IMG/VR virus record: IMGVR_UViG_3300028456_000007
Source of the DNA: a virus
Lineage: Duplodnaviria; Heunggongvirae; Uroviricota; Caudoviricetes
Direction: 5' to 3' (one strand)
Length of the DNA stretch: 40,058 nucleotides
The stretch's first letter is position 1, and every line of letters begins with the position of its first letter. The notes beneath the pieces were generated by a model. That model saw only the letters and a list, made by a program, of their open reading frames with translations, did not search any database and was not told the origin of the DNA. This document shows positions 1 through 39,682 of the stretch, piece after piece. Both the position numbers and the translations under genes were made by a program.

Positions 1-573
1 ATGTTTTGCGAAGAAAAAGTAGCTCAAATGGCTGCATACCTACTTCTTAAGAGAGGTGGGCGCATGGCATATCTGAAATTGATGAAGCTGCTCTATCTGT
101 CTAACCGCCAGTCGATTTTGAAGCATGGCAGGATGATCGGCGAAGATAGCCTTTACTCTATGAAATTTGGACCAGTCATGTCGAATACGCTGAACTTGAT
201 TCGCGGTAAGGCTGAAGGCATTGGTGACTACTGGTACAACTTGATAGAGACGAACGGGCATAATGTATCGTTGCGTTCAGATCCGAGGGAAATGGATGCA
301 GACGAGGTCTTTGATGAATTGAGTCGTGCAGATATCCGGATTTTAGATGAAATCTATTCTCGGTATGGGCATATGAACCGATTTGATCTCGCAAATATGA
401 CGCATTTAGAAAGCGTTTGTCCAGAGTGGCACGATCCTGGCAATTCTCGTAAGCCTATAGACCTGAAAGAAATGCTGATCAGTGAGGGTAAAAGCGAGGA
501 TGAGGCTAATCGCATAATTGGCAAAATGGAAGAATCTCAGAAACTTAAGGAATTTTCTTTGCAATTATCATGA
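1..573 (+). CDS. Panacea/DUF4065-domain protein (SocA/PanA-like putative antitoxin); possibly 5'-partial at window edge
   Basis: ORF begins at window position 1; segment AYLLLKRGG-RMAYLKLMKLLYLS resembles the conserved N-terminal core of DUF4065/Panacea proteins as recalled; stop overlaps next start (ATGA at 570-573). Confidence 0.5.
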   Translation: MFCEEKVAQMAAYLLLKRGGRMAYLKLMKLLYLSNRQSILKHGRMIGEDSLYSMKFGPVMSNTLNLIRGKAEGIGDYWYNLIETNGHNVSLRSDPREMDADEVFDELSRADIRILDEIYSRYGHMNRFDLANMTHLESVCPEWHDPGNSRKPIDLKEMLISEGKSEDEANRIIGKMEESQKLKEFSLQLS

Positions 574-989
574 CGGATTATCAGCCATACAGGAAAGGAA
601 CTGTGCTTGCCCCAACTGGACCATGCAATCATCTTCATGTGATTTGTAATGATCCTGTTTATTACCCCGTTAACGATTGTTATTGTGTTTTAGTTGTTAA
701 TATTTCTAGTATCAAGGATGGTGTCCCCCACGATCCGTCTTGCGTCTTGAATTCCGGTGATCATCGCTTTATCAAGCATCCAAGTTATGTTGTTTACGCT
801 GAAGCTATAATTTGGCGAGTGGATAACATGGTTAGAAAGCAGCGATCGGGTGAGATTTCTGTTCATGATGATATGCCAGAAGCTACATTCAATAGAATTC
901 TGGACGGTTTTGATATATCTGATGAAGTTACGCCAAAGAACCTTAAATTTAAAAATAAATATTGCGTATCATCTATTGATGATGAGTAA
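570..989 (+). CDS. hypothetical 139-aa protein translationally coupled to the Panacea-domain gene (candidate toxin/effector partner)
   Basis: 4-bp ATGA start/stop overlap with upstream gene; Cys/His-rich; no family recognised. Confidence 0.45.
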   Translation: MTDYQPYRKGTVLAPTGPCNHLHVICNDPVYYPVNDCYCVLVVNISSIKDGVPHDPSCVLNSGDHRFIKHPSYVVYAEAIIWRVDNMVRKQRSGEISVHDDMPEATFNRILDGFDISDEVTPKNLKFKNKYCVSSIDDE

Positions 990-1028
990 ACAACAGGAAT
1001 TGTTTCGGTATAGCTTCTGGAGTTTTCT

Positions 1029-1202
1029 ATGGAAGATCAAAAAGCAACCAAGCCACAGCTTAAGTTCGACACAATGAAAGCATTCGCAGGTATGGGTGCT
1101 GCTGTTGAAGTTCTGATGAAGGCTGCTCCTAATGCGTTCACTCACGTTACTGTCTCTGGTAAAGAGCAGCAGGGTAAGCTTCGTCGTCGCAAAGCAGTAT
1201 GA
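1029..1202 (+). CDS. small hypothetical protein (57 aa), below ORF-track length cutoff
   Basis: ATG 1029 preceded by GGAG at 1019-1022; 57 sense codons to TGA 1200-1202; basic C-terminus (KLRRRKAV). Confidence 0.3.
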   Translation: MEDQKATKPQLKFDTMKAFAGMGAAVEVLMKAAPNAFTHVTVSGKEQQGKLRRRKAV

Positions 1203-1340
1203 TTCATAGGTGGTGATTTTTTTAAAATGTCTTTAGACATAATGTCGTTCACTTAAGTGTGATGGTACTGCGTTTCACCAGATAATGGTTTTTTGATATC
1301 TTAATTTCCCTCGCTGGGAGGGTAAATACAGGTAGCATGA

Positions 1341-2375
1341 ATGCCACTAAAAGCGTCACTTAACGGAAAAGAAATTCATTCTTTTGAATTTAACTCTCAG
1401 GAATGGGAATATCTTAAACAGACATATAAAAGCCAGTCTTTGTTTATGTCGTGCTGTGGTCAGCCTGGTATACCTAAAACAAGCAAACTTAATAACTATT
1501 ACTTTGCACATAAATCCAAAAGCGATTGCCTGTATGCGAAAGAAAGCGCAGAACATTTATATCTCAAATTCTTAATCGCAAAATTAGCCAGTGATGCTGG
1601 CTGGTCAGTTACTACCGAAAAACAAGGGGCGACCCCAGCAGGAGAACAATGGATTGCCGATGTGTTTTGTACCAGAAATAACGCGAAACTGGTTTTCGAA
1701 GTACAGTTATCACCGCAAAAAGACGATGAATTTAAAGAACGTCAAAAACGATATATCGCATCAGGAGTCCGTGCACTGTGGTTGCGAAAGTTACGTAAAG
1801 GAAGTAAAGAGCATGGTGGGAATATATACCATAGCTACGATTTACCTGTTTTTGGTGTGCGTCAGAATGAAAATGGGGACTTGTATCTACCACAGTTTGG
1901 GATTAGTGTCAGGGAGTTTATCGCGGGTGTTTTTGCCAGAAAGCTATTATGGTTCCCAAAGGTTGGGGATGTGCTGACTGCAAAAATAGAATCGCGAGTT
2001 ACAAAATGCTGGAGATGTAAGAAACGAACTGGAATTATCAGAGGTATTTCTGTTTACAGTAAGTCCGTATTCGTCAAGTTTTTATCTTTTCGTGATTCTG
2101 ATGTCAAAGAACTAATAGCCACTCACGTGGATAACAAAAAACTCTGGGCGGCTGGAATTGGTACTGTTAAGGACAGAGACAGTGATTGTTATTTATCTAA
2201 CTGTTGCATACATTGTTATTCGATTATAGGAGATTTCTTTTTATTAGAGGTTTTCGACTATCCGAATGATAAACAAAAGATAATGATAGAATTTACTTTT
2301 AATTATGCTAGCAATATGAAAATCTTATCCAGCGAGTGGGTATTTGATGGTAAAAAAGCTGAAATATTTTTCTGA
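1341..2375 (+). CDS. CoiA-like family protein (predicted PD-(D/E)xK-type nuclease with Cys clusters)
   Basis: 344-aa ORF; CC..YYFAH motif followed by ESAEH..K..E..QWIADV..FEVQLS resembles competence protein CoiA family; extra CWRC...NCCIHC cluster; GGGAGGG SD upstream; clearly AT-rich versus rest of window. Confidence 0.55.
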   Translation: MPLKASLNGKEIHSFEFNSQEWEYLKQTYKSQSLFMSCCGQPGIPKTSKLNNYYFAHKSKSDCLYAKESAEHLYLKFLIAKLASDAGWSVTTEKQGATPAGEQWIADVFCTRNNAKLVFEVQLSPQKDDEFKERQKRYIASGVRALWLRKLRKGSKEHGGNIYHSYDLPVFGVRQNENGDLYLPQFGISVREFIAGVFARKLLWFPKVGDVLTAKIESRVTKCWRCKKRTGIIRGISVYSKSVFVKFLSFRDSDVKELIATHVDNKKLWAAGIGTVKDRDSDCYLSNCCIHCYSIIGDFFLLEVFDYPNDKQKIMIEFTFNYASNMKILSSEWVFDGKKAEIFF

Positions 2376-2535
2376 TGCTGTCTTATCCTCGTTGCCATCC
2401 CGAAATGACAGGAACATCTGTGGGATGTTCTGGGTATTGTGTTCATAACAAAATGCCCCCAACTATCAGAGCCGAGGGAAATTAAGATATCAAAATAACA
2501 TTATCTGGTGAAATGCAGAGCAGCTCATCTTAAGT

Positions 2536-2562
2536 GAACGGCATTGGCCTTTATGCGTTTTT
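2536..2562 (+). terminator. weak candidate terminator downstream of CoiA-like gene
   Basis: short stem GCAT..ATGC followed by T8 run (2555-2562). Confidence 0.25.
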
Positions 2563-2567
2563 TTTCT

Positions 2568-2849
2568 TTAGTGATGTTCTTTGCTCTTCTGTTTGTCTGT
2601 TCTGACCCGTTCCCACTCGATACGTCCTTCTTCTCGTCTTTTATCTATGTATTCCGCAAGATCCTGAATATTGATGCAACGTTTTGCTTTTTGTGATGTG
2701 CCAATGCGATATGTAGGAACAGGCAACTTACAAGCGTTTGCTTTTGCTTCTGCTGTGGCTGGACTCATACCAAAGTACTTTTGGCTAACTGCTGAGAGTT
2801 CAATGTTTGAGGTATTGAATTCAGCCATCAGTAAAAACAAGGTGTTCAT
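2568..2849 (-). CDS. PrtN/excisionase-like small DNA-binding protein (putative recombination directionality factor)
   Basis: ORF 2568..2876; likely start MNTLFLLMAEF at ATG 2849-2847 with GGAGAA SD; sequence pattern resembles PrtN-family excisionase-like prophage proteins; sits at prophage end opposite to int. Confidence 0.5.
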   Translation of the reverse strand: MNTLFLLMAEFNTSNIELSAVSQKYFGMSPATAEAKANACKLPVPTYRIGTSQKAKRCINIQDLAEYIDKRREEGRIEWERVRTDKQKSKEHH

Positions 2850-2885
2850 AATTTTCTCCATCAAAACCGGCTGCACCCGGAAAAA

Positions 2886-3170
2886 TCATAATTCTGTGCT
2901 GGTGGCAGGAATTAATTTCTGCCAGATAGCTGAAACATATTTTGCCTGATGACGAGCATCAGCCAGGGCGTTGTGCCGTTCGCCATCGAAAGGCATGTCC
3001 ATTTTGGGGTCGAATCCGATGGAACGCCCAAGCGTAACGATCGTGCGTACATCGTGATCATTCCAGTACGCCCATGGGCAGATTTGTCCTGCTCGTTCAT
3101 AAGCTCCGCGTAAAATTACGTTGTCGAAGGTGGCCCCGTTACCCCAAACTTTTAAATATTTCGAAAACAT
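2886..3170 (-). pseudogene. DEDD-type 3'-5' exonuclease, C-terminal fragment only
   Basis: Exo II-like WGNGATFD and Exo III-like HNALADARHQA motifs present but no Exo I region; ORF starts immediately after stop of upstream HD gene. Confidence 0.4.
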
Positions 3171-3707
3171 TCATGCGCATTTGCGTAACTCCGATAACTC
3201 GTTAAAACGTTCCATAAACATCCCGTAGGCATGGCCTGGTGACAGTGGAATAACTTTGAACATCTCTGTTGCCGGGATGCCTTCCAGTACAGGCCAGAAA
3301 GAGCCATCATCAAGCCCGAGATCGCGGCGTTCGGTTGCCAGCATAATAAGATCGGCATATTTCACTGGCGTGCTCATAACAGGAGGTAACCCGTATTTCT
3401 CACGGATTACGGCGTCTATTTTTTCTTCCATCCGTTTATAGTCAGGAAGAAGTCGTTTCAGTGGCGCGGGGATGTCCTGGCAATATGCTTCTGTTGCATC
3501 ATGCATTAACGCTTCAAAAGCAAATTCCTGCGGCACCAGCTGGCTGCAAAGCACCGCATGCTGGGCGACACTGTAGAAGTGTGAAAGATGTCCTGCAAAG
3601 CGACAGATATTTGAAAGGGAAACTGCGATATCGTTAATCACGATGTCGTCTTTATTTATCCTGTCATAATAAAAATGCTTCCCGGAAAAAGTTTTAATAA
3701 ATGACAT
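3171..3707 (-). CDS. HD-domain phosphohydrolase (YfdR-like prophage 5'-nucleotidase family)
   Basis: H...HD motif (FAGH ... MHDATEAY); probable start MSFIKTF at ATG 3707-3705 with GGAGAA SD, giving 178 aa (ORF track start 3734). Confidence 0.6.
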   Translation of the reverse strand: MSFIKTFSGKHFYYDRINKDDIVINDIAVSLSNICRFAGHLSHFYSVAQHAVLCSQLVPQEFAFEALMHDATEAYCQDIPAPLKRLLPDYKRMEEKIDAVIREKYGLPPVMSTPVKYADLIMLATERRDLGLDDGSFWPVLEGIPATEMFKVIPLSPGHAYGMFMERFNELSELRKCA

Positions 3708-3834
3708 TTTGTTCTCCACGTATATGCGCTGCACCGCGCTGAATTCTGGTAAAAGGAAGCCCTCACCATCCGGTGATTATTGAGTTAATTACGTTTCCAT
3801 AAATGCCCCCGCAGAGGCATTTGCAGTAATGAAA

Positions 3835-4659
3835 TCAGGCGGTGAAAGTACCAATAAAGGTTTCTACTTTGCTGTCTTTGAATTTCTCAACAAGCAGATC
3901 ACGAAATTCGTTAGCCATTTCTTCCTGCACCGCTTCCAGCTGAATAATGCGCAGAACCAGTACAGGACGATCGCCAGTGATAATGCTGAGGCGTAATTTA
4001 AACGGACGTTCTTTCAGACCTTCAAACGGAACGCATTTAAATTCAAATGCCACTGGCATAATGTCTTTGGTCTTCGCTTCGACAGACTCCATCAGGGAGC
4101 GTTTGCCGCTGAAGTCATTATCTTCAAAATCAGCGGTCTGGTTTGCTTCAATCGTGATTTTACGGACTGCCGCAGCCGCTTTGGTTGCCTGAATGGTGTC
4201 ACCATTAGCATCAAAGCCCACAAGGTAGTCGGCCCAGTCTTCAATCCATTCTGCCAGTGACTTCTGGGAGTTACGCTCGCCATTAACAGACAACAGAGCA
4301 GAAAACGGTGCTGTCTTTTTCAGTTTGAGAGTGGCGGTGTTATCTGCGTGACCTGGTTCATCAATAGTACCCAGGTTAAGCACACTGACGGCTCGCATAT
4401 TATCGGCATCGATAAAGCAGCGGGTGCCTTCATCTGCAAGATCTTTAGAATAACGGGTAAAGTCATCGATGCAGGCAGTGGAAAGCGCACCACGGAAACG
4501 GAAGCGATTTAAATTAAATTTTTCCAGATCATGAATGCGGAAATTCTCAGGCAATGCCACAGCATCGGCACCAATCTTACTGATAATTTCATTAACACCC
4601 TGAGCAGAAATAAGGGCATGGATTTGATTAATTGCGGTTGCGTCTAAGTTCTGAGACAT
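3835..4659 (-). CDS. prophage early-region protein, YfdQ-like (DUF2303-type)
   Basis: 274-aa ORF; recalled resemblance to CPS-53/KpLE1 YfdQ family; unverified. Confidence 0.5.
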
Positions 4660-4724
4660 AATAAGTCCTCACTATATTAAGATATTCAGTGATGAGATAA
4701 ATAATCAGTTAATTAAGAACGATA

Positions 4725-5087
4725 TTAATGACCTGCTGCGCGGAGTTTTCCGTCAGGTTCACCGGCAAGAGTCAGTAATTGTCCCTGGTCTTCCTGCAGA
4801 ATAGTCAGGCGACCACCGCGATTGACATACATCGGCGTTTCGGTGGTGTCTTCTTCGGAAATTTTCCCGCGGTTAGTTGGGCGAACATATGAGAGTTTGT
4901 GTTTGATTTTCACACGGTTCTCATCAAACGGTTCGATTTCCAGATTGAGTGAGACCTTCCCTTTGGTTTTCGTGTTCATCACACCGGAAGCGACTTCACT
5001 GAGAACTGCGCCAATTTTGGTTTCAAATACGCCGCCGTCCAGCTCCCCGATAAATGCCTGCACATCAGTACTGCGTTCGCTAGCCAT
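4725..5087 (-). CDS. hypothetical early-left protein (YfdP-like), first gene downstream of pL
   Basis: ORF track 4725..5273, but GAGGAG SD precedes internal ATG 5087-5085 (MASERSTD...), giving 120 aa; upstream extension overlaps operators. Confidence 0.5.
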   Translation of the reverse strand: MASERSTDVQAFIGELDGGVFETKIGAVLSEVASGVMNTKTKGKVSLNLEIEPFDENRVKIKHKLSYVRPTNRGKISEEDTTETPMYVNRGGRLTILQEDQGQLLTLAGEPDGKLRAAGH

Positions 5088-5428
5088 TTTGCTGCTCCTC
5101 ATCATATCGACCCTGCAAGGTCGGTTGGTTTCTCCACAAAACAGAGAAGAACACCTGCGGTGGCAGCCGCCCGGATGGATTGGGTTATGAGCCCGTCGTC
5201 CGGTGATGCTCTTCTCTGTTTTGTAAAAAGAGCGGTACCAGCCGGAAGCAAGTGTACAAACTGGTACCGCCAAAGCAGTGGCTGTTGTGGTGACCGGTGC
5301 TGATCTCCGGCTTGCGGTTATTTCAGACTCTCACGGGCGTTTAATTGCCCCGCCGAACAGCTCTTTTCCGCAATAGCTGCAATGTCTTTCGCGCATCAGC
5401 CTGCGCCTTCACCACAACTCTAAAAACA

Positions 5429-5482
5429 AATGTAGGATATCCAACATGTGGGTGTCAAGAGTTTATGTTGGTTATCCTACAT
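5429..5482 (-). promoter_or_regulatory. pL-like promoter with two operator sites (OL)
   Basis: reverse-strand TTGACA (5458..5453) - 18 bp - TACATT (5434..5429); operators ATGTAGGATATCCAACAT (5430..5447) and ATGTTGGTTATCCTACAT (5465..5482). Confidence 0.5.
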
Positions 5483-5504
5483 AAAAAGATAGGCTCATAA
5501 AAAA

Positions 5505-5523
5505 AACCGGGGATACCCCGGTT
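5505..5523 (-). terminator. rho-independent terminator downstream of repressor gene (bidirectional)
   Basis: 8-bp stem AACCGGGG/CCCCGGTT with 3-nt loop; A8 run upstream and T-run downstream on forward strand (U-run on reverse). Confidence 0.6.
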
Positions 5524-5545
5524 TTGCGATAGTGAGGAAGATGTG

Positions 5546-6199
5546 TCAAAAATCCATTATTACTTGTTTGACAAGACCAACTATTCTGCAGTTCTCACCG
5601 CATTCAATAGTTTTATAGTTAGGATTTAGTGGGACGAGATACCTGTTCGGCCAGTCCTCAACAAATTTTTTGAGTGTCGCTTCTTGCCCACCATTGATAT
5701 GGGCAACAACGATTTTTCCGTTAATACACTCTGTATCAATAATATCTGGCTCTACGATAACGATAGAACCTTCTGGTATCGATGGTGAGCCGAGGGGATT
5801 GGTCATTGAATCACCACGGACCCGTAGTGCAAATGCCATTTCTGATACAAGGGCGGTAGTATAAACCCACTCTTCAGCATCTTCTTTCCTGACACCAGGC
5901 TCCGTCATTGTCCATGAACCCGCCTGAACCCACGAGATGAGGGGGACTTTTTTAACTGCGAATATTTCAGGTTTTAGATTTATCTTTGGTTCAGGCGAGC
6001 CTTTTCCGCTAACAAGCCACAGAGGATCGCATTTAAGTGCGTTGGCTAGGGCTTGAAGGTTGGCTCCATTTGGTTGGTAGTCGTCCTTTTCCCATCCAGT
6101 AACCGTGACACGGTTCACACCAGTCAAATCAGCCAGTGCTTGTTGTGTCAGGTTCAGTTCTTTTCGCCTTTGGCGAATACGATCACTCATGTTCATCAT
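5546..6199 (-). CDS. CI-like phage repressor (N-terminal HTH, C-terminal LexA/S24 peptidase-like autocleavage domain)
   Basis: HTH segment LTQQALADLTGVNRVTVTGWE; C-terminal VRGDSM ... KIVVAHINGGQEATLKKF typical of S24 family; start ambiguous among ATGs 6199/6196/6190 (ORF track 6223). Confidence 0.85.
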   Translation of the reverse strand: MMNMSDRIRQRRKELNLTQQALADLTGVNRVTVTGWEKDDYQPNGANLQALANALKCDPLWLVSGKGSPEPKINLKPEIFAVKKVPLISWVQAGSWTMTEPGVRKEDAEEWVYTTALVSEMAFALRVRGDSMTNPLGSPSIPEGSIVIVEPDIIDTECINGKIVVAHINGGQEATLKKFVEDWPNRYLVPLNPNYKTIECGENCRIVGLVKQVIMDF

Positions 6200-6263
6200 G
6201 TAGGCAATCCTACCACATGCCAATGTAGGATTCTTGACATTGACATGTTGGATATCCTACATT
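6198..6263 (+). promoter_or_regulatory. OR operator cluster with PR-like promoter
   Basis: three sites with palindromic core GT(A/T)GGATATCC(A/T)AC: 6200..6213, 6225..6238 (half-site), 6247..6260; TTGACA 6234..6239 - 18 bp - TACATT 6258..6263; cro ATG at 6295. Confidence 0.55.
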
Positions 6264-6294
6264 TCTGCTTAACGTAATTTAACGGGAGACAGAA

Positions 6295-6492
6295 ATGCGG
6301 AAATCCGACGTGATTAATTATTTCGGCGGAGTTTGTAAAACCGCCGAAGCCCTAGGTATTAAGCATCCGTCTGTTTCAGAGTGGCCTGAGATTATTCCTG
6401 AAGGCCGAGCGTACCAGTTAGAAAAAATTACTAACGGGAAACTGAAAGTTGACGTGTCTTTATATCAAAAGACTAACAGTGCTGCGGCATAA
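6295..6492 (+). CDS. Cro-like small DNA-binding regulator
   Basis: 65-aa ORF divergent from repressor across operators; GGGAGA SD. Confidence 0.6.
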   Translation: MRKSDVINYFGGVCKTAEALGIKHPSVSEWPEIIPEGRAYQLEKITNGKLKVDVSLYQKTNSAAA

Positions 6493-6519
6493 AAACACCA
6501 CAGAAATGAGGAATTAACC

Positions 6520-7098
6520 GTGGGTAAAGAACCTGAATGGAAAGTTGATAAACAACCAGCATGGCTGGTGGCAGCAATACGAAGAACGATTGCTGATTTA
6601 CCTCATGGCTATGAGGAAGCAGCAGAAATTCTTGGTTTGTATAAATCTGATGATATCACCCCAGCAAAAGATCAATTGCATAACAGACTGCGTAGCGGTG
6701 GGGATCAAATTTTTCCACTTGAGTGGGCCATGGTTTTACAGGATGCCAGTGGTACCAGGCATGTAACAGATGCAATAGCCCGTCGTAGTAATGGGGTGTT
6801 TGTGCCGCTGGTGGTCATTGATGACATTGACAATGGTGACATTAATCAGCGGCTGATGGAGTCAATAGAATGGATTGGCAAGCATTCCCAGTACTTACGC
6901 AAGGCAACTGCTGATGGAGTTATTGACCAGGCTGAGCGTGAGCAAATCGAAGAGAACAGCTACCAAGTAATGGCGAAGTGGCAGGAGCATTTAACACTGT
7001 TATTTCGTGTTTTTTGTGCGCCGGAAAAGAGTAACGCCCGCGAGTGTGCAGCTCCGGGCGTCGTGGCGTTTTGTGTCTGTGGAGAAACTAACGCATGA
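6520..7098 (+). CDS. hypothetical early-right protein (possibly CII-like regulator)
   Basis: 192-aa ORF directly after cro; family assignment uncertain. Confidence 0.35.
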   Translation: MGKEPEWKVDKQPAWLVAAIRRTIADLPHGYEEAAEILGLYKSDDITPAKDQLHNRLRSGGDQIFPLEWAMVLQDASGTRHVTDAIARRSNGVFVPLVVIDDIDNGDINQRLMESIEWIGKHSQYLRKATADGVIDQAEREQIEENSYQVMAKWQEHLTLLFRVFCAPEKSNARECAAPGVVAFCVCGETNA

Positions 7099-8467: not shown

Positions 8468-9282
8468 GTATGGAGCTGATGGTTAAAGCGATGAAAATTC
8501 GAGTGGGTAATCCATTGCGAAAACTGGTTCTGATCAAGCTGGCTGATAATGCCAGCGATCAGGGTGAGTGCTGGCCCAGCTACCAGCATATTGCTGACCA
8601 GTGCGAGATTAGCAAACGTTCTGTGATGAATCATATTGCGGCCCTTTGTGATTCCGGGCTGGTAAAAAAAGTCACCCGGAAAGGTGAAAAAGGTAACTCA
8701 AGTAATATCTATCTCCTTCATCTTGATGGTGCAGGAGATTCACTAGGGGGTAGTGCAAATAATTCACTATCTGGTGCAGCAAATTCACCAGGTAGTGCAG
8801 GAGTTGCACCAGGGGGTGGTGCAGGAGATTCACCCAGAACCAGTCACTCTTTTGAACCAGTCAAAGAACCAGTCAATGAACCAATAGCTGTTGGTGCATC
8901 TGCTGATGAGTCCGTGCGAGTTCGTTCAAACCGACCGGAATACTCTCCGGAGTTTGAGCAGGCATGGCTGGCATACCCCAAACGTGCTGGTGGCAATTCA
9001 AAATCTGCAGCCTTCAAAGCCTGGAAAGCCCGTTTGAATGAGGGGGTAAAACCCGAAACCATGCTGGAAGGTGTGAAACGCTACGCGGGCTGGGTATCTG
9101 CGATGGGTAACAGCGGCACACAATTTGTGAAACAGGCTGTCACGTTCTTTGGTCCGGATCGTCATTTCGAAGAATCCTGGGAAGTTCCTGCGGTATCTGC
9201 AGCCAGACGCGAGGACCCGTACTTCAAAGCCAGTTACGACAACGTGGACTACAGCCAGATCCCGGCAGGATTCAGGGGGTGA
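8464..9282 (+). CDS. replication initiation protein (N-terminal winged-helix domain, O-like)
   Basis: N-terminal LRKLVLIKLADNASDQGECWPSYQHIADQCEISKRSVMNHIAAL resembles phage replication-protein HTH domains; Gly/Ser linker encoded by iteron-like repeats. Confidence 0.5.
   Translation: MSMELMVKAMKIRVGNPLRKLVLIKLADNASDQGECWPSYQHIADQCEISKRSVMNHIAALCDSGLVKKVTRKGEKGNSSNIYLLHLDGAGDSLGGSANNSLSGAANSPGSAGVAPGGGAGDSPRTSHSFEPVKEPVNEPIAVGASADESVRVRSNRPEYSPEFEQAWLAYPKRAGGNSKSAAFKAWKARLNEGVKPETMLEGVKRYAGWVSAMGNSGTQFVKQAVTFFGPDRHFEESWEVPAVSAARREDPYFKASYDNVDYSQIPAGFRG
8728..8875. repeat. iteron-like direct repeats inside replication gene (candidate ori)
   Basis: five 16-bp near-palindromic units (GGTGCAGGAGATTCAC type) at 8728, 8752, 8773, 8794, 8818 with 21-24 bp spacing, then three perfect GAACCAGTCA copies at 8837, 8854, 8866. 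Confidence 0.45.
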
Positions 9283-35017: not shown

Positions 35018-35610
35018 TGAAACCTGTATTTGATGAAAATGACCTGGCAACAGAGGCGGGCAACATCCGTTGTTTCTACTTCGATCCTGTAACGTTCGAA
35101 TATACTGGCTGGTCTGACGAATATATTAATGTTGGTGTAAGCATGCCTGGCCATTCAACAGATATTGACCCAGGTGATGAAGTGGACGGAAAAATTGCAG
35201 TGTTCACAAACGGTCAGTGGGAGCTGTACGAGGACCATCGAGGGGGCGCGGTTTATTCAACAACCGATGCTTCAGCCGTTACGGTGGACTATATTGGCCC
35301 GGTAAAGGATGGTTACACCATCCTTGCACCTTCAGGCCCATACGATAAATGGGATGGAGAGAAATGGGTGACCGATACTGAGGCACAGCATAGCGCCGCA
35401 GTAGACGCGGCAGAAGTACAGCGTCAGTCACTGATTAATACTGCAATGGCTTCCATTAGTCTGATTCAACTTAAATTGCAGGCCGGGCGGAAGCTGATGC
35501 AGGCAGAGACCACCCGACTTAACACTGTGCTGGATTACATTGACGCGGTGACGGCAACAGATACCAGCACAGCGCCGGATGTCATCTGGCCTGAACTGCC
35601 GGAGGCGTAG
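35017..35610 (+). CDS. tail fibre assembly protein
   Basis: Tfa-like sequence directly after fibre gene. Confidence 0.8.
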   Translation: MKPVFDENDLATEAGNIRCFYFDPVTFEYTGWSDEYINVGVSMPGHSTDIDPGDEVDGKIAVFTNGQWELYEDHRGGAVYSTTDASAVTVDYIGPVKDGYTILAPSGPYDKWDGEKWVTDTEAQHSAAVDAAEVQRQSLINTAMASISLIQLKLQAGRKLMQAETTRLNTVLDYIDAVTATDTSTAPDVIWPELPEA

Positions 35611-36019
35611 GCCATTCAATATCTGGCACACTGGAGGTATCAACCAGCTCCAGTGCGTCCAGGTAATCCAGCCACAAATTATATTGCGCCAGTTCCTCGT
35701 CTTTCAGACGACCAATAGCGGCTTTACCGGGCCATTGTTTACTGTTCATGTATTCGTTGGCCTGATTAAGCAATAATTGCCTTTCTGATTCTGCCTGTTG
35801 AATAAGTTCTTCATGTGATGGTGAAGGTATTAGTGCCCATGTGGGTAATCCATTTTCTCCTGCAACACGAATTTTGCCATCTGGGGGCGTATTTATTGCA
35901 AATTCATTATAAACATCGTCACTGACAGCCAGAGCATCATCTGGCCATGAATTTGCATTAATGTAATCATCCTTAAGTGCAGGATTCACAAAAATGTTTA
36001 AAGATGGACTATAAAACAT
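35582..36019 (-). CDS. alternative tail fibre assembly protein (paired with silent fibre variant)
   Basis: Tfa-like sequence on opposite strand, convergent with the other assembly gene. Confidence 0.75.
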   Translation of the reverse strand: MFYSPSLNIFVNPALKDDYINANSWPDDALAVSDDVYNEFAINTPPDGKIRVAGENGLPTWALIPSPSHEELIQQAESERQLLLNQANEYMNSKQWPGKAAIGRLKDEELAQYNLWLDYLDALELVDTSSVPDIEWPTPPAVQAR

Positions 36020-36020
36020 A

Positions 36021-36356
36021 TTACACCCCTATAGCGATATAACGACCTAATACAGCGTTTGCAGCAGTCGCTATGCTTGAAAAACCGCGGAACTGATTTG
36101 ATGTAATTGCAGAAGCCGACAGGATTCCTGCGCCTGAAGGTGTATGCCCCACATGACTAACTATCATTACATAACATGCTGACGGAAAGGCAAAAGGAAA
36201 ATCATTAAGATATCCGGCATCTTCACCACCAGACCCACCAAATCTCGCCTGCCCCCACTGAATAATCAGTGTTCTCCGGGAACCTGAAATAATTAACGGG
36301 ATCGTTACATACCCATTCAGGCCAATGACACCCGATGCAGTGCCAGCCAGAGATAA
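36021..36356 (-). CDS. alternative tail fibre C-terminal segment, silent in this orientation
   Basis: reverse-strand reading frame continues from the right crossover site (GLGELSLAGT...) with no own ATG; in-frame stop just outside the site. Confidence 0.6.
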   Translation of the reverse strand, partial: LSLAGTASGVIGLNGYVTIPLIISGSRRTLIIQWGQARFGGSGGEDAGYLNDFPFAFPSACYVMIVSHVGHTPSGAGILSASAITSNQFRGFSSIATAANAVLGRYIAIGV

Positions 36357-36382
36357 TTCTCCCAAACCAACCTTTCAAATAT
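36357..36382. other. hix/gix-like recombination site (right)
   Basis: reverse strand ATATTTGAAAGG-TT-GGTTTGGGAGAA; inner half identical to left site, outer half divergent. Confidence 0.55.
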
Positions 36383-36441
36383 TTTTCTGAATCAGGTGAT
36401 ATTTCGCCTCTTCTCCTGTTTTTACAACAGGAGAAGCACTC

Positions 36442-37005
36442 ATGATTTACGGGTATGTTCGTGTATCAACAAATCATCAGGATACAGAGTTGCAACGTCT
36501 TGCACTTGAGTCAGCTGGCTGTGAGCGAATTTATGAAGAATATGCCAGTGGCAGAACAGCTAATCGCCCTGTGTTAAAGGAATTAATTACGGTGATGAAA
36601 AGTGGAGATGAGTTGATTGTCTGGAAGTTAGATCGGATAGGGAGAAATGTGCTGCATGCGCTATTGATGTTTCAAAATCTGCACGAAAAAGGTGTTAATT
36701 TTCGGAGTATTACAGATGGCGTAGACCTGAAAACAGCAAGTGGTCGCTATAATTTCCGTAATATTCTTTCTGCTGCGCAGTATGAATCTGATTTGAATAG
36801 CGAGCGAACTTTAGCTGGTTTGGCTATTGCCAGATCCAAAGGCCGGATTGGTGGGCGTAGACCGAAGTTTAGCGACGAGCAGTGGCAACAGATGGGAGCG
36901 CTCATAGCGGCAGGGAAATCACGGCGTTATGTTGCACGTATCTATAACGTTGGGCTATCAACCCTATATAAACGATTTCCTGTTACTGGCATTCAAACGA
37001 AATAA
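36442..37005 (+). CDS. DNA invertase, serine recombinase (Pin/Gin/Hin/Cin family)
   Basis: YGYVRVSTNHQ catalytic Ser motif, resolvase-type N-terminal domain, C-terminal HTH; AGGAGAA SD. Confidence 0.9.
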   Translation: MIYGYVRVSTNHQDTELQRLALESAGCERIYEEYASGRTANRPVLKELITVMKSGDELIVWKLDRIGRNVLHALLMFQNLHEKGVNFRSITDGVDLKTASGRYNFRNILSAAQYESDLNSERTLAGLAIARSKGRIGGRRPKFSDEQWQQMGALIAAGKSRRYVARIYNVGLSTLYKRFPVTGIQTK

Positions 37006-37458: not shown

Positions 37459-38556
37459 TCAAGAGGTCTTATTTCTGCTCCTTTGGAGCTCTTCAAAACG
37501 ATTATGTAAAGATTTCGGATACAGTTCGGTATATACCTGCCATAGCACGTTTAATGAACGATGCCCTGTAACCTGGGCGACTTCCTCAATACTAAAACCA
37601 GCCTCAAATAAGCGACTTGCCCCTTCTCTACGCAAATCATGGTATCGCAGATCTTTAATACCTAATTTGCTTCTTACCCTCTGGAATCCCGCAGTAACAG
37701 AAGTGCTGTTATATGGAAAAATGAATTCTGATTTTTTGGGTTGTCGTTGGACGATATCCCAGGCTTCCCCAAGCAAGGCTACTTTCATATGGTTGCCTTC
37801 CTTTTTACGTGGATCTTTCCTGTCTCTTACGAGTATGGATTTTTGTTCCTGATCGAGATCCTCCCATCGTAATCGGCATACTTCACCGATTCGCATACAT
37901 GACCACACAGAAAATTTGAGGATATCAACGAACGGAATTTTTGAGCATTTATGTGTAGATCGTTGTTGAAGACCTTCAATGAGCATGTCCAGTTCATCAG
38001 ATGCCGGTCTACGATTACGACGATTTGATTTACCAATTAAACCAAGTTTAAGTAGATATGGACGAGCGGCTTTTGCTGGGTTTGATGTGTAATTAATTCC
38101 ATATACAGGTTTGGCAGCATCCAGAACACTGCCAAGATAACTAACATCGTGGCTAACTGTAGCTGGACCTGCACCAGCGTTGTTTCTTAGCCTGCAATGT
38201 TCAATTACGTCATTTTCTGTCAGTTCAGATAGTTTGATCGCGGAGATGTCACTATCCATAAGCAGTTCCAGCACATATCTTTTAGTACGGCCTGCTTTAC
38301 CTCCGGCATTTGGGTCATTTAAATATTTGTGTAGTAAGTCACGGACTGTAAGTCCGTCAACTGCATTTGATGATGGAATGCCATATAGATCTAATTCCAT
38401 CACTTTCTGTGTGCCCCATGTTTTGGCATGAGCATGTTTAGGGAATGTTTTGCTTTCCCTGTAAGTGATAACACCTTTTTCTTTGATAATCACATTACAG
38501 CGATAGCGTGGTGTGCCATCGGATTTTAGTCGTTTCTCTATGTTATAGTACGCCAT
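37459..38556 (-). CDS. int: tyrosine site-specific integrase (dusA-associated type)
   Basis: C-terminal catalytic pattern HDLRREGASRL ... TGHRSLNVLWQVY; adjacent to 5' end of dusA. Confidence 0.9.
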   Translation of the reverse strand: MAYYNIEKRLKSDGTPRYRCNVIIKEKGVITYRESKTFPKHAHAKTWGTQKVMELDLYGIPSSNAVDGLTVRDLLHKYLNDPNAGGKAGRTKRYVLELLMDSDISAIKLSELTENDVIEHCRLRNNAGAGPATVSHDVSYLGSVLDAAKPVYGINYTSNPAKAARPYLLKLGLIGKSNRRNRRPASDELDMLIEGLQQRSTHKCSKIPFVDILKFSVWSCMRIGEVCRLRWEDLDQEQKSILVRDRKDPRKKEGNHMKVALLGEAWDIVQRQPKKSEFIFPYNSTSVTAGFQRVRSKLGIKDLRYHDLRREGASRLFEAGFSIEEVAQVTGHRSLNVLWQVYTELYPKSLHNRFEELQRSRNKTS

Positions 38557-38644
38557 TACACGACCTCGTTATTTCGGGTTCCCATAAAACGTGGGAACCT
38601 GAGCGGGAACCTAACGCGAGAAAAATAGCCTGAAATGTTCAAAA

Positions 38645-39682
38645 ATGCACGATAATCATGAAACACAAAAAATTAATCAAACCAGCGTGATGCCTGAAAA
38701 AACTGGTGTTTACTGGAATTCTCGGTTTAGCATTGCTCCTATGCTCGACTGGACGGACAGACATTGCCGCTATTTCTTGCGTCTGCTTTCCCGCAATACG
38801 TTGCTGTATACCGAAATGGTGACCACAGGGGCGATTATTCACGGTAAAGGTGATTACCTGGCGTACAGTGAAGAAGAACATCCGGTAGCGTTGCAACTCG
38901 GCGGTAGCGATCCGGCGGCGCTGGCACAGTGTGCGAAGCTGGCAGAAGCGCGTGGATATGATGAGATCAACCTGAATGTCGGCTGCCCGTCTGACCGGGT
39001 GCAGAACGGCATGTTTGGTGCGTGTCTGATGGGTAATGCGCAGCTGGTTGCCGACTGCGTGAAAGCGATGCGCGATGTGGTGTCGATTCCAGTGACGGTG
39101 AAAACGCGTATTGGCATCGATGACCAGGACAGCTATGAATTTCTCTGCGATTTCATCAACACCGTTTCCGGCAAAGGCGAGTGTGAGATGTTTATCATCC
39201 ACGCACGTAAAGCCTGGCTTTCGGGGTTAAGCCCGAAAGAAAACCGTGAAATCCCGCCGCTCGATTATCCGCGTGTGTATCAACTGAAGCGTGACTTTCC
39301 GCATCTGACAATGTCGATTAACGGTGGTATCAAGTCGCTGGAAGAGGCCAAAGCACACCTGCAACATATGGATGGCGTGATGGTCGGGCGCGAGGCGTAT
39401 CAGAATCCGGGTATTCTGGCGGCGGTAGACCGGGAGATCTTTGGTTCCTCGGATACCGATGCCGATCCAGTGGCGGTAGTGCGCGCCATGTATCCGTACA
39501 TTGAGCGTGAACTCAGCCAGGGGACGTATCTCGGCCATATTACCCGGCATATGTTGGGCTTGTTCCAGGGTATTCCTGGCGCGCGGCAGTGGCGGCGTTA
39601 TTTAAGTGAAAATGCCCATAAAGCGGGTGCAGACATTAATGTGCTGGAACACGCGCTCAAACTGGTGGCGGATAAGCGTTAA
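38645..39682 (+). CDS. dusA: tRNA-dihydrouridine synthase A
   Basis: 345-aa ORF recognised as DusA from memory of the E. coli protein; TIM-barrel Dus pattern (NLNVGCP ... K-x-R); conserved host neighbour pspG follows. Confidence 0.9.

Follow-up and report, generated by a model that had tools for sequence, protein, structure and literature searches.

Where does a prophage end and its host gene begin when the phage itself appears to have supplied the start of that gene, and what are the repeats that lie between them? These questions are raised by the right end of the viral stretch IMGVR_UViG_3300028456_000007 (40,058 nt, called the window here, always meaning the whole stretch that was analysed). 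At this end an integrase gene, int, and dusA, a tRNA-modification gene, are divergently transcribed from either side of an 88-bp spacer (38557..38644). We read the interval 38557-38760 as attR, the right-hand junction of an Escherichia coli prophage inserted in dusA. Our full reading, to which we give a joint probability of about 0.8, has three parts. A temperate phage of ~39 kb was placed in the dusA 5' end by a dusA-specific tyrosine integrase. The spacer repeats are arm-type integrase sites on the P arm of attP, the phage attachment site, and are partnered by two copies on the P' arm. The integrase (Int) would be heterobivalent like lambda Int, with an N-terminal domain of 58 residues that binds the repeated arm word. 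Insertion in dusA is of a known and common kind, and the gene is a documented hot spot. What we believe to be new is the exact crossover interval, a five-site arm architecture and the correspondence between arm word and N-domain across the family, which together make a modest addition.

Where the phage ends and dusA begins

An earlier note on this DNA, made from its letters alone, placed the start of int 88 bp from the start of dusA, and the coordinates bear this out (Table 1). It proposed an integrase of the type that inserts into the 5' end of dusA and supplies a new 5' end in exchange. This proposal stands up well. The divergent gene encodes a PF00589 protein, and an ungapped alignment with K-12 strain JM109, in which dusA is unoccupied, divides the gene sharply. 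Positions 38645-38740, beginning at the dusA ATG, are identical to K-12 at 78 of 96 sites (81.2%), the next eight positions (38741-38748) match at 8/8, and the rest of dusA after this core matches at 924 of 934 (98.9%). The final mismatch before the core is at 38740 and the next one is at 38857. The same hybrid gene is annotated by RefSeq in E. coli APEC E123, and pspG comes after dusA. The dusA part is matched in all 5,426 of 5,426 complete E. coli genomes, 740 of which also match the integrase part.

The earlier note also reasoned that identity to native dusA running through the whole 5' region would place the att site elsewhere. The K-12 alignment does run that far, reaching 3 nt before the ATG, because the 5' end of K-12 itself resembles an old copy of such a junction. 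Yet the identity over this part is low, so the extent of the alignment is what that argument described but its quality is not.

It is not possible to fix the crossover from the window alone, as the same note recognized, since attL lies ~255 bp outside window position 1. A blastn-short search of 38501-38900 against 1-38400 for a matching att repeat returned only chance matches of <=17 nt. The note's suggestion of looking for the repeat at the other prophage end can be followed in relatives. The enterotoxigenic E. coli (ETEC) strain H10407 carries a prophage that is 99.2% identical over window 1-7000, and window position 1, the ATG of a Panacea-domain gene, is position 9001 of that locus (our locus L004). 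Ahead of this prophage lies a dusA fragment of 105 nt that the annotation calls truncated. The fragment is the native dusA 5' end, identical to K-12 at 96/96 positions up to ATGCTCGA; past the core it reads TAGGATGTACCG..., which is phage DNA that continues into window position 1. The virion genome of phage mEp460, whose Int is 98.4% identical, holds the uninterrupted attP, ...ATTGCTCCT ATGCTCGA TAGGATGTACC..., and it corresponds exactly to the window's attR up to the core followed by the H10407 attL from the core on. A contiguous attP is also found in the virion genomes of YeP1 and EKP1. Taken together the H10407 attL and the mEp460 attP put the crossover at 38741-38748, at the right end of the interval that the note had marked.

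Because ATGCTCGA is the sole stretch identical in attP, attL, attR and attB (the unoccupied bacterial site), strand exchange must have happened within it. In attP the core lies between TCCTA and TAGGA, which form an inverted repeat of 5 bp with TGCTCGA at its centre, and the overlap is likely the 7 bp of TGCTCGA (38742-38748), with a core-type half-site on each side. The DNA to the left of the core is phage DNA, and it provides a surrogate start codon and 32 codons keeping dusA open. No dusA-linked relative has an indel between the dusA ATG and the core (96 nt, 32 codons). This phage DNA probably includes a promoter for dusA as well; in IMEVchUSA3 a new promoter supplied by the element has been measured (PMC8409611). 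The 21-bp semi-conserved repeat described for dusA elements (PMC4482086) has a copy at each end of the prophage, in attR here and as CCAATGCTCGATAGGATGTAC in the attL of H10407. The register of the repeat is our own placement.

Two observations concern other forms of this junction. The circular record of phage Lys8385Vzw (MT225100.1, L059) has ATGCTCGA twice in tandem at attP (ATGCTCGAATGCTCGA), which is probably an artefact of joining prophage ends that each kept a copy of the core. K-12 JM109 (L001 1399-1600 against window 38541-38760) has a remnant of the int start, ATGGTATAGTACCCC where the window has ATGTTATAGTACGCC. In its dusA 5' region both the AAAATA and the AAAATGCACGGTAAT box are still present, the ATG is likewise 96 nt from the core, and the arm words are decayed. 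B2-type genomes such as LF82 (L002 1290-1560) are without yjbL/yjbM (DUF2713) and have another dusA 5' end; homology between the K-12 type and the LF82 type resumes at the att core. We looked beside zur in H10407 for a displaced LF82-type dusA 5' fragment, which would point to yjbLM as a decayed two-ended dusA island, and found none.

Table 1. Features of the int-dusA junction and of the genes and protein domains discussed (window coordinates unless residues are given)
Feature	Position	Strand	Basis or remark
PrtN/RdfN-like gene, candidate recombination directionality factor	2568..2876	-	PF11112, E 1.1e-22
int, tyrosine integrase of dusA-specific (DAI) type, 365 amino acids	37459..38556	-	PF00589
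Int putative arm-binding domain, three-stranded sheet + helix	residues 1-58		predicted
Int core-binding domain	residues 72-165		weak PF24624 Int_N match
Int catalytic domain	residues 189-346		PF00589, E 1.1e-20
int start codon	38556	-
Putative Shine-Dalgarno GAGG of int	38564..38567	-	7 nt before ATG, from sequence
P1, inverted copy of arm word, GGGTTCCCA (minus strand TGGGAACCC)	38576..38584	-
P2, direct copy of arm word, TGGGAACCT	38592..38600	+
P3, direct copy of arm word, CGGGAACCT	38604..38612	+	12 nt from P2
Near-invariant box AAAATA	38622..38627	.	kept in at least 90% of 23 aligned relatives
Near-invariant box AAAATGCACGATAAT (AAAATGCAC..AAT), contains replacement dusA start codon	38642..38656	+
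Hybrid dusA: codons 1-32 element-derived, chromosomal codons from core on	38645..39682	+	PF01207, E 7.8e-105
Element-supplied replacement of dusA 5' end, 32 codons	38645..38740	+	drop in K-12 identity; within mEp460 attP
attR copy of 21-bp semi-conserved att repeat, CCTATGCTCGACTGGACGGAC, codons for PMLDWTD	38738..38758	+
Crossover region ATGCTCGA	38741..38748	.	alignment of attL, attR and attB; attP sequences

One word on both arms of attP

Upstream of int, at 20-56 nt from its ATG, GGGAACC(T) is present in three copies. The inverted repeat GGTTCCCA/TGGGAACC has perfect 8-bp arms at 38577-38584 and 38592-38599, which a repeat-finding tool widens to 11-nt arms at 38574-38584 and 38592-38602 with 91% complementarity. 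The direct GGGAACCT copies are at 38593-38600 and 38605-38612, their starts 12 nt apart. All of these repeats are where the earlier note had put them. It offered them as candidate integrase or regulator binding sites, and of the two senses it is the integrase one that has gained, through the presence of the word on both attP arms and its co-variation with the integrase N-terminal domain.

Judged from the window alone the spacer repeats are moderately unusual. GGGAACCT is expected 0.99 times in the window and is found 4 times, a number that 2 of 100 shuffles attain. Counting both strands together, three occurrences of one 7-mer within 88 nt turn up in 0.6% of spacer shuffles and in 1.4% of the segments of that length in the 40-kb sequence. 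These modest figures are what could be said for chance similarity in a short spacer of mixed AT and GC content, with no function at all. We give that explanation almost no credence because most of ~56 related sequences have this layout in the same position, in many cases with perfect 8-mers spaced by 12 nt, and because the words of the two arms match each other in a permutation test described below.

The recurrence was seen in 52 genome loci of other species, with Int 44-99% identical, most of which are followed by a dusA 5' end encoding MLDWTD. The three-copy layout is at the same place in most of these loci and of the phage genomes examined: an inverted copy, a gap of ~7 nt and two direct copies 11-12 nt apart, the whole set keeping a constant spacing to the int ATG. 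Lineages differ in the word. Its classes are GGGAACC / GGGAGCC, GGGGTGC, GGTGTAC, GGTGTCC, GGATACC, GGGTGAC and TTTGTATC, and aligned relatives have the inverted copy at the equivalent position with each lineage's own word. Most loci contain perfect 8-mer pairs, and by our arithmetic ~0.5% of such searches are expected to give one. Since the layout recurs at the same place in relatives, we believe there is strong evidence that the repeat cluster is not a product of chance. A scan of viral contigs with the integrase as query gave only copies 89-100% identical, which are of no use for co-variation, and it was set aside.

Two departures from the common pattern were noticed. In Escherichia sp. MOD1-EC7003 (L005), whose integrase is 99% identical, P1 and P2 have changed to GGTCCCC / GGGGACC and P3 is still GGGAACC, which suggests either a tolerated degenerate word, GGGRRCC, or a co-change of the palindrome that resembles gene conversion. 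In the Vibrio loci L042-L044 the core is ~300 nt away from the int ATG, against ~185 usually, and the triple repeat was not found at its usual place, so the arm layout of this sub-lineage would be different or would lie elsewhere.

The word is not confined to the spacer. The P' arm of mEp460, of Lys8385Vzw and of the H10407 attL contains TGGGAGCCT and TGGGAACCY, 11 nt apart and ~60-70 nt past the core; in the present genome these P' copies would correspond to ~193-211 nt left of window position 1. We read attP in nine further phages with integrases 34-69% identical, and each of them has a word of its own on both arms: GGGGTGCT in YeP1, GGTGTACT in EKP1, GGTGTCCT (plus one GGGGTGCT) in Morganella IME1369_02, GGGTGACT in Pseudoalteromonas C5a, GGGAGACT in Salinivibrio SMHB1, GCACACC in Ralstonia YL2, TCGTACC in Rhizobium RHph_Y3_1, and GTAGCAA in both Burkholderia BcepIL02 and the F116-like Pseudomonas phage F1Pa. 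A dusA-like surrogate whose last residues, at the core, are (A)PM(L/M/I)D is present in all ten attPs, and in the distant phage relatives (Int 34-37% identical) the surrogate is APMMDWTD. We then scored the arms without choosing the words ourselves: the commonest 7-mer of each P arm was picked automatically and counted in every P' arm, allowing one mismatch. In the resulting matrix of P words against P' arms the diagonal averages 1.8 matches and the off-diagonal cells 0.41 (permutation P = 1e-5 for the diagonal sum, 200,000 column permutations). The core is separated from the arm words by ~135-165 nt on one side and by ~60-70 nt on the opposite side, distances like those of lambda attP.

One of these phages deserves a separate remark. 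The record 'Elizabethkingia phage EKP1' (OM284015.1, L141) encodes an integrase that shares 67% identity with that of E. coli. It has a dusA surrogate of the enterobacterial type and the core CCCATGCTCGATGGG, and next to its attP is a PrtN-like gene. Its assignment to a host in the Flavobacteriia seems doubtful.

A rival explanation is that P1 and P2 form a nucleic-acid hairpin in the int or dusA leader, acting as an attenuator, a stabiliser or a translational control, in which case the co-variation of the words would be compensatory pairing. The predicted centroid structures do contain an 8- to 12-bp P1/P2 stem, the plus-strand RNA folds better than its shuffles (z = -2.36), and the two arms of MOD1-EC7003 changed together. 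However, the int-sense strand folds no better than shuffles (z = -0.33), and P3 and the two P' copies share the word without having a pairing partner. In Kosakonia and Pluralibacter the arms differ from each other (GGTTCCC or GGTCCCC vs GGGAGCC) but still fit GGGRRCC, and several distant relatives such as C5a and SMHB1 have direct copies only. We consider the hairpin very improbable as the source of the pattern.

Part of the spacer is conserved outside the repeats. The two near-invariant boxes of Table 1 are always 17 nt apart in the 23 aligned relatives. The AAAATA box may belong to an int promoter on the minus strand, or may be the plus-strand -10 element of a dusA promoter carried by the element. 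The start-codon box is also kept in Xenorhabdus loci without a downstream dusA (L025-L034), and it therefore likely has a role at the DNA level, as a promoter element, an RdfN site or a site for a host factor. Inspection by eye gave no convincing sigma-70 promoter for int or dusA.

The integrase domain that the word follows

In the integrase R222, H306, R310, H332 and Y342 are conserved among 35 homologues. The full-length AlphaFold2 model has a predicted local distance difference test (pLDDT) score of 84, and with this model Foldseek finds Tn1549 Int and full-length lambda Int (1z1g_A, 368 columns). The N-domain is predicted as three antiparallel strands (residues 2-10, 16-26 and 29-38) followed by a helix (41-58), with pLDDT ~90 both in the full-length model and when modelled alone. 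Three strands and a helix are the topology of the arm-binding domains of lambda Int and Tn916 Int, which resemble AP2/ERF domains.

It is this domain whose divergence goes with the word. Pairs of integrases with the same word are not much closer in residues 70-350 than pairs with different words (73.4% against 70.9% identity), and in residues 1-58 the two kinds of pair are far apart (83.6% against 61.9%). Residue 30 is I in the GGGAACC class, Y in GGGGTGC, H in GGTGTAC and mostly R in GGTGTCC, and residues 5 and 23 are likewise specific to the class. The N-terminal motifs ITY/ITF, KYIY, KHLH and KRIx go with GGGAACC, GGGGTGC, GGTGTAC and GGTGTCC in that order.

The most telling cases are pairs of integrases that are nearly the same except at the N-terminus. 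Morganella L014 (GGGGTGC) and phage IME1369_02 (L140, GGTGTCC) are 98% identical in residues 70-350 and 76% in the N-domain. The words also differ between Rosenbergiella L013 and L012 (95% and 62%) and between Xenorhabdus L015 and L022 (90% and 74%). These three pairs are apparent natural domain swaps, in which an N-domain would have been exchanged as a module together with its arm sites. We conclude from these comparisons that the word appears to follow the N-domain of Int and not the rest of the protein.

The swaps also bear on another explanation, in which the repeats are not arm sites but the operator of a regulator, whether a phage repressor, RdfN or a host factor, acting on divergent int and dusA promoters. 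The position of the repeats is what one might expect of an operator, in an 88-bp divergent intergenic region and just ahead of the ribosome-binding site of int. Together P1 and P2 make a palindrome such as dimeric regulators bind, and proteins of the RdfN type do bind DNA. But an operator does not account for the recurrence of the word on the P' arm, across the core and beside genes that are unrelated in different elements, nor for a word that tracks the Int N-domain even where the rest of Int is 95-98% identical, and the third copy, which is direct and outside the palindrome, is conserved too. We regard an operator in place of arm sites as unlikely. The two ideas are compatible in one respect, since Int bound at the repeats could itself be a regulator.

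Several points weigh against the assignment of the repeats to Int, beginning with the modest spacer statistics given above. The P' copies lie outside the window and were read in relatives rather than in this genome. For one of the ten attPs, that of the Rhizobium phage, the automatic picker did not succeed and the match was identified by eye. Neither Pfam nor a sequence comparison with the PDB gave a match for the N-domain, and in NCBIfam there are sub-threshold matches of the Xer type to the catalytic domain only. The int promoter was not found, a consensus promoter and terminator scan of 38400-38900 giving no match, and the near-invariant boxes are by eye unlike the consensus for integration host factor (IHF), for which no formal scan was run. 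Finally, the assignment depends on co-variation that is partly confounded by shared ancestry, a concern that the three swap pairs reduce.

Taking the arm-site reading as it stands, we propose the following mechanism. The attP would span ~260 bp, from P1 near the int ATG to P'2. The central and catalytic domains of Int would bind and cut the core, and the N-domain would read the five arm sites, so that bridges from arm to core assemble the intasome. Integration would exchange strands within TGCTCGA, in the dusA codons for PMLD. From then on dusA would be read from phage codons and, by analogy with IMEVchUSA3 (PMC8409611), from a phage promoter too. Excision would be directed by the PrtN-like homologue of RdfN (2568-2876). 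RefSeq places the homologue of this gene at the equivalent of 2568-2849, the gene is annotated as an excisionase in mEp460, and RdfN is the demonstrated recombination directionality factor (RDF) of a dusA-specific element (PMC8409611).

Binding of Int at P1-P3 may also damp the expression of int, because any promoter of int would have to lie beyond these sites as seen from its Shine-Dalgarno sequence. P4 Int is known to regulate its own expression in a comparable way.

Related systems and what follows

The window prophage is a member of a family that has been described before. Farrugia et al. 2015 (PMC4482086) defined the dusA-associated integrase elements and their 21-bp semi-conserved repeat, and the work of Durand et al. 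2021 (PMC8409611) brought in RdfN together with the new promoter and N-terminus. Of the dusA elements known, about half are prophages, and E. coli examples had already been noted (PMC4482086, PMC8409611). With these elements the prophage shares an int gene beside and divergent from dusA, insertion at the 5' end in the 21-bp repeat, a new 5' end and a PrtN-like RdfN, and we see no essential difference. Both papers treat the core repeat only and have no 'arm-type' or flanking Int sites; a full-text library search for dusA together with arm sites found nothing relevant, in a library that is incomplete.

The likeness to lambda is one of plan. The window Int is predicted to have three domains like lambda Int, a separate small candidate RDF is encoded, and in both systems a word outside the core is repeated on the two arms of attP. 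Lambda Int has no detectable sequence similarity to the N-domain of the window Int. The P arm here has one inverted and two direct copies right beside the start of int, whose transcription therefore runs away from attP. Insertion is into the 5' end of a protein-coding gene that the element repairs, and the lambda pattern of IHF, Xis and Fis sites was not recognised here by eye, no formal scan having been run. Membership of the lambda-type heterobivalent class is supported by the architecture of the sites, and not by detectable domain homology. The SXT/R391 integrative and conjugative elements at prfC belong to another integrase lineage and use another target.

The same integrase is found in the sequenced E. 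coli phages mEp460 (NC_019716), Lys8385Vzw (MT225100), 1720a-02, phiSTEC1575-Stx2k, SKA5 and PhiR40_1, with Int 98-100% identical. Their attP has the P arm of the window except for one base between P2 and P3, and DinI is encoded downstream of int. Outside these parts each genome is mosaic: mEp460 has a lambda-like tail fibre, whereas the window phage has genes for a sheathed (contractile) tail and an invertible tail-fibre segment. That segment (35582-37005) contains a serine invertase gene of the Pin/Gin type (36442-37005; PF00239, HTH_7) beside oppositely oriented tail-fibre and tail-fibre-assembly open reading frames, and probably serves as an invertible host-range segment of the kind known from Mu, P1 and e14. 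At the other end the first genes inside attL look like cargo, namely a SocA/Panacea-domain protein (1-573) and a CoiA-like nuclease-domain protein (1341-2375); the open reading frame at 570-989 has no Pfam match at E 0.01 or better. In the excised phage these cargo-like genes (1-2375) would be transcribed away from attP, divergently from int.

A bolder idea, which we hold only tentatively and think rather less likely than its opposite, is that the arm word and the N-domain of ~58 residues are an exchangeable specificity cassette, diversified among elements that compete for the dusA attB and can sit there in tandem. Its companion is that the K-12-type dusA 5' end and the DNA upstream of it are a fossil attR. 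If the cassette were real, these integrases would share their core specificity and yet leave the attL and attR of one another's elements alone.

As a junction this one is ordinary, and its integrase is already present in several sequenced E. coli phages, Stx2-converting ones included. What the comparison gives is a testable map of attP for the whole family of dusA integrases. If the assignment of the arm sites is true, it would explain how many unrelated elements share one target without excising each other. It would also provide rules for delimiting dusA islands and for predicting which integrase acts on which element, and it would offer natural orthogonal arm-binding modules for integrase engineering.

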